This document shows positions 4,447 through 6,427 of a stretch of DNA of 22,189 bases, piece after piece. Numbering within the stretch: position 1 is the first letter of the stretch; each line of letters starts with the position of its first letter. Source of the DNA: a virus (taxonomy: Duplodnaviria > Heunggongvirae > Uroviricota > Caudoviricetes); the IMG/VR virus record IMGVR_UViG_2687453530_000003; one strand, 5' to 3'. A program made the translations under genes and the position numbers. Below the pieces are notes generated by a model. The model did no database searches. It was not told the origin of the DNA and saw only the letters and a list, made by a program, of their open reading frames with translations.

Positions 4447-5392
4447 TCAGCTGATACTGATACCTGCTGTGGATTTTTTCATCACCACAACCAGCAGATC
4501 GCTGATACTGGTTGTTGGTGTCCAGTTATTCGCTCCTGATGAAGATACGCTGAATGTCAGTGTCAGCGTCCCCTGTCCGGCAGGCATATCTATAACGGAG
4601 GAAAATACGCCCTGAGCATCCGTCGTGGACTGATTAAAAATCTCCTGACCATTGAGGGTCACTCTTAACCGGCAGGTTGAATACCAGTATGACTGTTGGT
4701 TATTACTGTTGAAATTCTCATGCTTACCACCGCGGAATAACACTGGCGGTATCATGACCTGCCGGTCAAATTTCTGATCATCACTGATTCTTACCGTGAT
4801 GGTGCCACTGGCATAACTGTTCGTGCGGGGGAAAGACTTGCTGACCGTTTTGACAATATCGCCTTCAATCTGATTGGCTGACAGTTTCCCCTTAATCTGA
4901 CAGTTCTCATTAATCGTGACGTTGTTGAGCGTCCCGGAGTTCGCATTCACACTGCCACTGATATCCGCATTTTTAGCGGTCAGCTTTCCGTCTGATGTCA
5001 GGGAAAATACCGGAGGACTGCCACCGCTGGTAATGGTGGGGGCCGTCAGGCGTTTCAGGAACACGTCGTTCATGAATATCTGGTTGCCCTGCGCCACAAA
5101 CATCGGCGTTTCATTCCCGTTTGCCGGGTCAATAAACGCGATACGGTTAGCAGCAACCAGAAACTGGCTCAGTTTGCCTTCCTCTGTATCCTCCATGCTG
5201 AGGCCAAGCCCCGCGACATAATGCTTACCGTCTTCGGTCTGCTCAATTTTGACGCCCCACATGGCATTCCATTTATCGTTGGCGTCTTTCCACTCTTTCG
5301 AAAACTCCTCCAGTCTGCTGGCGTTATCCTCCGTCAGGTCGACTTTTTCCAGCAGCTCCTTGCCGAGATGGGATTCGGTTATCCCCTTTCGT
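4447..5392 (-). pseudogene. J: C-terminal ~315 codons of tail tip/host-specificity protein J, with no N-terminus
   Basis: Translation contains ...[77 protein letters not shown]..., the conserved J C-terminal region; the frame opens just after the A junction. Confidence 0.85.
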
Positions 5393-6427
5393 CTTCATCC
5401 AGTCTTTGACAATCTGCACCCAGGTGGTGAACGGGCTGTACGCCGTCCAGATGTGAAAGGTCACACTGTCAGGCGGTTCAATCTCTTCACCGGATGACGA
5501 AAACCAGAGAATGCCATCACGGGTCCAGATCCCGGTCTTTTCGCAGATATAACGGGCATCAGTAAAGTCCAGCTCCTGCTGACGGATGACGCAGGCATTA
5601 TGCTCACAGAGATAAAACACGCTGGAGGGATCATCCGGCATCCATTTGAGGCCAAACGGCGTCTCTTTGTCGCCAAATTTAAGGTACTGCTCCTTCCCGC
5701 AGTGCGGGCAGGCAACATGAAAACGCATAAAATGCGGGGATTCACTGGCTGCACGCTCAATCTGGCAGGTGCCTCTCACTTTGGGCGTGGAGCCACGGAT
5801 GGATTTTGGCCAGACAGAGCCTTCAATACGCTTATCGCCCAGGAACGTCGGAGAGCCTTCCTGTTCAATATCCTCATCAAAGGCAGCAAGTTCATCATAA
5901 CCCGCCACATCCACTGACTTTTCACGGTAGTTTTTTGCCGCTTTACCGCCCAGGCACCAGAAGCCACGCCCATTGGTGAAACGCTTCATGGTGAGCGTGT
6001 TATCCCGGTGCTTTTTGCCATACCACGGGGCCAGCGCCAGCAGCGAAGGAATATCACGGATGGTCGGCTCAACGTGGGTTTTCATAAAGTTCTCGGCATC
6101 ACCATCCGTCGGCAACCAGATAAGGGTGTTGCGCTGCTTATGCTCTATGAAGTAGGCATAAACACCCAACAGCATTTTGGAATAACCAACACGGGCAGAC
6201 TTCACCACATTCACCTCGCGGATGTAGTCGCTGCCCATCGCATTCATGATGGCCCGCTGAAAGGGCAGTGTTTCCCAGCGCCCTTCCTGGTATGCGGATT
6301 CTTTCGGGAGATAGTAATTGGCATCCGCCCATTCAACGGCGGTCTGTGGCTCCGGCCTGAACAGTGAGCGAAGCCCGGCGCGGACAAAATGCCGCAGCCT
6401 GTTAACCTGACTGTTCGATATATTCAC
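5393..6427 (-). pseudogene. A: Terminase large subunit gpA, N-terminal 345 codons only, fused to J C-terminal DNA
   Basis: MNISNSQVNRLRHFVRAGLRS...[13 protein letters not shown] matches lambda gpA residues 1-345; the frame then runs into J-derived sequence and stops. Confidence 0.9.

Follow-up and report, generated by a model that had tools for sequence, protein, structure and literature searches.

Gene content of the prophage and the remnants beside the junction

The window, by which we mean the whole stretch of 22,189 nucleotides that was analysed, is a cryptic lambdoid prophage at lambda attB, between ybhC and ybhB, in the APEC O78 lineage of Escherichia coli. Over its full 22.2 kb it was 99.97% identical to E. 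coli APEC O78 (NC_020163.1), bar one extra deletion. The RefSeq gene order starts with ybhJ, ybhC, int, xis, IS2, early-left genes, exo, bet', kil, cIII, ral, and 'quuD, continues with an OmpC/NmpC-type porin gene, essD, rrrD, rzpD, bor, ybcV, ybcW, ylcI, and nohD (nu1), and ends with a terminase large-subunit pseudogene, a tail-tip pseudogene, lom, stf, 'tfa, ybhB, and bioA. Compared with full lambda, the minus strand of the window showed the attP core (lambda 27724, window 20859), int, xis, and exo to ral with a gap at bet-gam; the collinearity then ran through Rz-bor-cos (99.3% identical), nu1, A to nt 1758, and J from nt 17967. The int and xis genes are intact, and annotation and lambda comparison agree that N, cI, cro, O, P, and the 5' part of Q are absent. 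Pseudogenes and insertions comprise IS2, bet', 'quuD, A', 'J, and 'tfa. Integration at an att site, preserved synteny, loss of lytic genes, and the presence of an IS element and pseudogenes together identify the element as a cryptic (defective) lambdoid prophage. Classification as a phage satellite, or cos-type PICI, was rejected on annotation, which revealed no replication genes and a combination of lambda early-left genes with a DLP12-type late region.

The element carries scars at other places. At window 12457-12463, the sequence passes straight from ral (lambda nt 34401) into the 3' part of a DLP12-type quuD, with loss of sieB, N, rex, cI, cro, cII, O, P, the nin region, and the 5' part of Q; quuD, the late-gene antiterminator that activates late transcription, is itself cut short there. 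The bet-gam gap, at 13677-13678, amounts to 958 bp against lambda (32222-33179) and took the 5' part of bet and all of gam, and left kil and cIII intact. An IS2 element (IS3 family) adjoins xis in the early-left region, at about 17797-19025, and nearby open reading frames are annotated as partial. The only Rfam family in the window was Lambda_thermo, the cIII thermoregulator (13382-13440, plus strand, 88.5 bits), and no tRNA genes were present. The late region holds an intact gene for a 360-aa OmpC/NmpC-type porin (10973-12055, plus strand), the counterpart of the IS5-disrupted nmpC of K-12 DLP12, and bor, which encodes a serum-resistance lipoprotein, is intact nearby. The porin gene and bor are likely host-useful cargo of the remnant.

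The cos region is kept (window 9674-7137 corresponds to lambda 45966-48502). An exact match to cosN, GGGCGGCGACCT (lambda 1-12), lies at 7125-7136 on the minus strand, window position 7136 being lambda nt 1, and all the genes around the junction read on this same strand. The terminase small subunit gene, nu1 or nohD (6402-6947), is full length at 181 aa, with Pfam Phage_Nu1 matched at 1-164 of 164 (E = 9e-101) and 99.4% identity to lambda Nu1 residues 1-181 by tblastn; its RefSeq name is DNA-packaging protein. The next gene is A', the terminase large subunit pseudogene (5381-6427), which retains codons 1-349 of 641 with 98.1% nucleotide identity to lambda 711-1758. An earlier note on this DNA had the protein following gpA exactly to codon 345; the gpA match was borne out, but translation gave three substitutions (D185E, E245K, and T263M) and placed the last gpA residue at D349. 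What remains is the N-terminal ATPase domain (GpA_ATPase, PF05876, residues 47-285, E = 3.8e-51). The second gpA domain was not matched by Pfam, the C-terminal nuclease domain and the length of about 641 aa are missing, and A' had no sequence match in the PDB. Since A' keeps the GpA_ATPase domain only, it cannot cut cos. Judged from its sequence, A' is a pseudogene that would not work as a terminase, and RefSeq lists it (APECO78_RS07815) as "incomplete; missing C-terminus."

The tail tip attachment protein pseudogene, 'J (4447-5382), encodes the equivalent of residues 822-1132 (311 aa), starting at I822 of 1132. Both Phage_Tail_Tip and Ig_GpJ_C were matched in Pfam (PF09327 and PF12421), in keeping with a C-terminal tail-tip fibre and receptor-binding domain; the roughly 820 N-terminal residues of the tail tip complex, and the gene's own start and translation signals, are absent. 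RefSeq describes 'J (RS07820) as "missing N-terminus." Its amino acid identity to lambda J was 94% over residues 822-963 and 47% over 964-1132. Lambda's own J receptor-binding domain binds LamB. Matches of 'J in the PDB were to 9wca, 8xcj, and 8iyk over J 822-1131, and 9wca, "A8 gpJ," was near-identical (E = 4e-200); A8 denotes a gpJ C terminus that occurs naturally in E. coli and with which lambda was retargeted to OmpC by grafting (PMC11338833). By this match, the receptor-binding end of 'J (4447-4950) is predicted to be of the OmpC-specific A8 type and not LamB-specific. An internal open reading frame that opens with ATG (4447-5262, 271 aa) covers the receptor-binding end; its use would count against a J remnant devoid of function, but nothing found speaks for it.

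Between 'J and lom, a pattern scan found a terminator-like hairpin with a T run (4410-4429), a consensus match that sits in the native J-lom intergenic arrangement. The Ail/Lom outer-membrane protein gene, lom' (3883-4380, Pfam Ail_Lom 1-163 of 199), has had its 3' end cut by a second deletion, and beyond it lies stf' (1686-3938), a side tail fibre remnant made up of the C-terminal part with an S74 chaperone domain (Pfam Peptidase_S74; megablast to APEC O78 stf). The N terminus of stf' was lost to that same lom::stf deletion, and genomes of the NC19 type call the product a "pyocin knob domain-containing S74 family peptidase." The earlier note had listed cos, nu1, the J receptor-binding end, lom, and a fibre fragment as remaining; each is indeed present, with the amendment that lom itself is truncated.

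The A'::'J junction and the missing stretch

The junction was located by blastn against lambda (NC_001416), the alignment that had been proposed for mapping the breakpoint and any microhomology. On the minus strand, window 7136-5380 corresponds to lambda 1-1758 at 98.1% identity, covering cos, nu1, and A codons 1-349, and window 5383-4889 corresponds to lambda 17967-18461 at 92.3% identity, covering J from codon 822. These alignments meet end to end and have 4 bp in common, GATA, at window 5383-5380, where lambda 1755-1758 on the A side equals lambda 17967-17970 on the J side, and there is no filler DNA. Three-way alignments gave the same result: the window keeps to A as far as GGGGATA, and its match to J begins at GATAACCGAATCCC. 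The earlier note was thus right that the junction is sharp, and its position is corrected from near 5392 to 5380-5383.

The missing lambda stretch is 16,208 bp (lambda 1759-17966, give or take the 4 shared bases), somewhat more than the roughly 15 kb that had been estimated. Lost with it were 45% of A at the 3' end, every gene from W to I, and J up to codon 821. An identical length, 16,208 bp, was obtained from the coordinates of a near-intact prophage in strain UTAK-3, in which the flanks lie at locus 3788 and 19997. The sequences flanking the junction keep the order and orientation that they have in lambda, UTAK-3, and LD22-1, the last being an apparently complete prophage at the same attB; comparison with such an intact attB prophage had also been suggested, and in LD22-1 the flanks are collinear and A through J are present. 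The chromosomal synteny ybhJ-ybhC-prophage-ybhB-bioA is intact, and therefore the deletion is internal to the prophage.

Translation confirmed that the protein switches to J C-terminal sequence, from residue 822, in a different frame. The open reading frame of A' (5324-6427, 367 aa) continues out of frame into J DNA (5324-5380), reading 18 junk codons before a stop at 5326-5324. The J remnant was correctly recognized as C-terminal, and its 311 of 1,132 residues come to 27% of the protein instead of a third. Its origin is clear from Pfam and from a single nucleotide difference in 937 from the intact gpJ of UTAK-3. When every lambda left-arm protein was used as a tblastn query, the window was matched only by Nu1 1-181, A 1-350, J 822-1131, Lom 20-172, and Tfa 147-192. 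No match in the window was obtained for W, B, C, D, E, FI, FII, Z, U, V, G, T, H, M, L, K, or I, in keeping with the claim that the head and tail block is gone, and no intact A or J was found elsewhere in the window.

Beyond GATA, the parental A and J sites share scattered matches only, and neither an IS end nor long homology is present at the junction. Rfam and tRNA searches of the window found no structured RNA or tRNA at the junction. No sigma-70-like promoter was detected at or near it on the coding strand, and the number of promoter-like sites in 4200-7600 equaled the expectation from shuffled sequence. A 5-bp hairpin across the junction (plus strand, 5370-5385) was judged to be a chance match.

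Distribution and later decay

A full-length match to a 140-bp probe across the A'::'J junction occurred in 21 of 5,426 complete E. coli genomes, at 99.3 to 100% identity. The carriers are mostly poultry isolates and include APEC O78 and O78:H4 strains. Among 50,697 phage records none contains the junction and none spans it; phage records were 100% identical to the probe on the A side up to position 72 and on the J side from position 69. The junction can serve as a handy marker for the clade. The ral::'quuD scar does not extend beyond this clade; about 21 genomes have it, EC130 being the one addition to the set. No genome was found that has this scar yet keeps A through J intact, the carriers being the junction clade and EC130, and no intermediate deletion state was found in the junction clade.

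Decay of the element went further after the junction had formed. The extra deletion that separates the window from APEC O78 lies at 3887-3895 (minus strand) and removed 1,267 bp, the APEC O78 locus being joined from 20814 to 22081. It cuts lom at Ail_Lom position 163 of 199 and strips the side tail fibre of its N terminus; its junction has an exact overlap of TG only, inside an imperfect 7/10 match. The lom::stf deletion is common to NC19, EM22-18-53, GZM7, NC22, and XB2, and the window, which shares it, therefore belongs to that sublineage and not to APEC O78 itself. In EC130 the same prophage has since lost the stretch between the 3' end of nohD and a point within stf (APEC O78 locus 18260 to 24087, 2-bp overlap, at EC130 locus 22509-22510), a deletion that erased A', 'J, lom, and most of stf. 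The loss in EC130 and the 1,267-bp lom-stf loss in the sublineage of the window argue against constraint on the A'::'J remnant.

Origin of the junction and related prophages

We consider it very probable that A'::'J is the scar of a 16,208-bp microhomology-mediated deletion within the prophage, a single ancestral event followed by neutral decay, with both remnants non-functional. Collinear flanks and a few shared bases, with no filler, IS end, or long homology, form the pattern of such a deletion. Chance alone would give 4 bp or more of overlap at about 1.6% of random junctions, and other junctions show 2 to 4 bp; as statistical support for a microhomology mechanism, the overlap is only modest. 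Presumably, illegitimate and RecA-independent recombination at GATA in the integrated prophage, through replication slippage or the misjoining of ends, took the nuclease half of terminase A, W through I, and 821 J codons, and left A'::'J out of frame. The deletion would have happened once, before the small APEC O78-lineage clade that carries it diversified, with vertical inheritance thereafter. Its fixation in one lineage could have been neutral, or the disarming of the prophage may have been mildly beneficial. As the sequences stand, A' and 'J would both lack function, and the deletion that joined them would be one of several decay events in an element whose decay appears to be ongoing.

That a single deletion occurred, as the earlier note had it, is supported as the parsimonious reading, given collinear flanks, one meeting point, and no inserted DNA. 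We infer the single step, because no direct ancestor was found in which both flanks are identical and A through J are intact, and any earlier deletions nested inside the gap would have vanished with it. A series of such nested losses, whose final member wiped out all the earlier junctions, could add up to the same 16.2-kb gap. Stepwise deletion is proven in this very element, by lom::stf in the sublineage and nohD::stf in EC130, and in other lineages pieces of portal, capsid, or tail genes still lie between A and lom or stf. However, one identical junction occurs in all 21 genomes that have the element with A', the clade offers no intermediate, and one junction with collinear flanks is most simply one event, all of which makes a stepwise origin unlikely. 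Recombination between two prophages, one contributing A and the other J, is hardly credible as the source of the junction, and the same holds for an assembly error. The element is mosaic, being 98% identical to lambda on the A side and 92% on the J side, and APEC O78 has other lambdoid prophage copies at three places in its record. However, recombination with a distant prophage would delete or invert part of the chromosome, and the flanking synteny is undisturbed; the junction shares 4 bp and no homologous tract; and the mosaicism pre-dates integration, as the intact UTAK-3 prophage has the same J type behind a lambda-like A. An artifact of assembly would have to have arisen in 21 independently assembled complete genomes.

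Selection may have kept the remnant in place, with the J receptor-binding end (the open reading frame at 4447-5262) or the cos-nu1 and lom-stf flanks domesticated for receptor masking or for packaging by a helper phage. Independent lineages have repeatedly dropped the block from A to J, lom, or stf and kept nu1, cos, lom, and stf; two of the resulting fusions are in frame and called intact by PGAP; tail-fibre genes are enriched in incomplete prophages (PMC7744054); and int and xis are intact in the window. Against this, the fusion in the window is out of frame, no promoter-like site was found for 'J, and a J fragment in the cytoplasm could not get to OmpC. In EC130 nothing has replaced the lost A', 'J, and lom, lom and stf of the window are themselves broken, and with O and P gone the concatemers needed for cos packaging are not expected. 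We accordingly give very little credence to a domesticated remnant. The broader proposal that the repeated, independent loss of this block (at least about 15 configurations, two of them in-frame A::J fusions) is not purely neutral, and reflects selection to disarm the prophage and keep the cos-nu1 and J tip, lom, and stf flanks, strikes us as improbable; if it were true, the kept flanks might serve mobilisation by helper phages, or surface or host-range functions.

Under the single neutral deletion that we prefer, the junction documents to the base one step in the erosion of the lambda-attB prophage in the APEC O78 lineage, and otherwise matters little. Both halves are already annotated as pseudogenes by RefSeq/PGAP, and A'::'J adds nothing unexpected to prophage decay. 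It fits the known trend in which terminase, portal, and capsid genes go first and tail-fibre genes and morons stay; a preferential loss of the former three, with enrichment of tail-fibre genes, has been described for incomplete prophages (PMC7744054).

The classic example of such a deletion is aaaD::tfaD in the DLP12 prophage of E. coli K-12. DLP12 resembles the window prophage in its late region, with quuD, an nmpC-type porin gene, essD, rrrD, rzpD, bor, ybcV, ybcW, ylcI, nohD, and a truncated A, and window 11997-6120 was 96.3% identical to it. Its aaaD::tfaD is likewise an internal deletion that starts within A, removed all the morphogenesis genes, has a 3-bp overlap, and is annotated as a pseudogene. 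However, the DLP12 break lies at lambda 1018 (about A codon 103) and rejoins at 22119 inside tfa, a loss of about 21.1 kb that also took J, lom, and stf, and DLP12 sits at the argU/ompT locus, whereas the window prophage is at lambda attB.

Decayed lambdoid prophages of two further types have A joined straight to the C-terminal part of J. In XD35, W409, and TA8571 the microhomology is TAA (3 bp) and the breakpoints are lambda 2179 and 18024 (XD35 locus 6274-8616); in ZYB62 it is GTGG (4 bp), with breakpoints at lambda 1890 and 17440 (ZYB62 locus 6274-8913). Both types lie at other chromosomal sites and are in frame, whereas the window fusion is out of frame. PGAP calls each fusion intact, as a single "terminase gpA endonuclease subunit" of 780 aa for the XD35 type and 879 aa for ZYB62, an annotation pitfall in which automated calls treat in-frame A::J deletion fusions as intact terminase proteins. 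More widely, a composite probe (the 5' kb of A, lom, and the 5' part of stf) revealed at least about 15 combinations of span and content in complete genomes in which the 5' end of A lies no more than 1.8 kb from lom or stf.

At the other end of the range are prophages that, like phage lambda and in contrast to the window, keep a 641-aa A, W through I, and full-length J. LD22-1 has the same architecture as the window prophage and identical Int and Xis proteins; it retains A (1,926 nt), W through I, J, lom, stf, and tfa, together with immunity and replication genes. On the A side it matched the window at 98.2% identity, but it has a J of a different type. The near-intact "DLP12" of UTAK-3 has all head and tail genes and occupies the argU/ompT (DLP12) site; its J C terminus plus lom was 99.7% identical to the window over 1,497 nt, and the annotated lengths of stf in UTAK-3 and APEC O78 are equal. 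Neither was accepted as a direct parent, the A sides being only 98.1 to 98.2% identical and J near-identical in UTAK-3 only. As reference states, the two prophages can help to reconstruct how DLP12-like elements decay.
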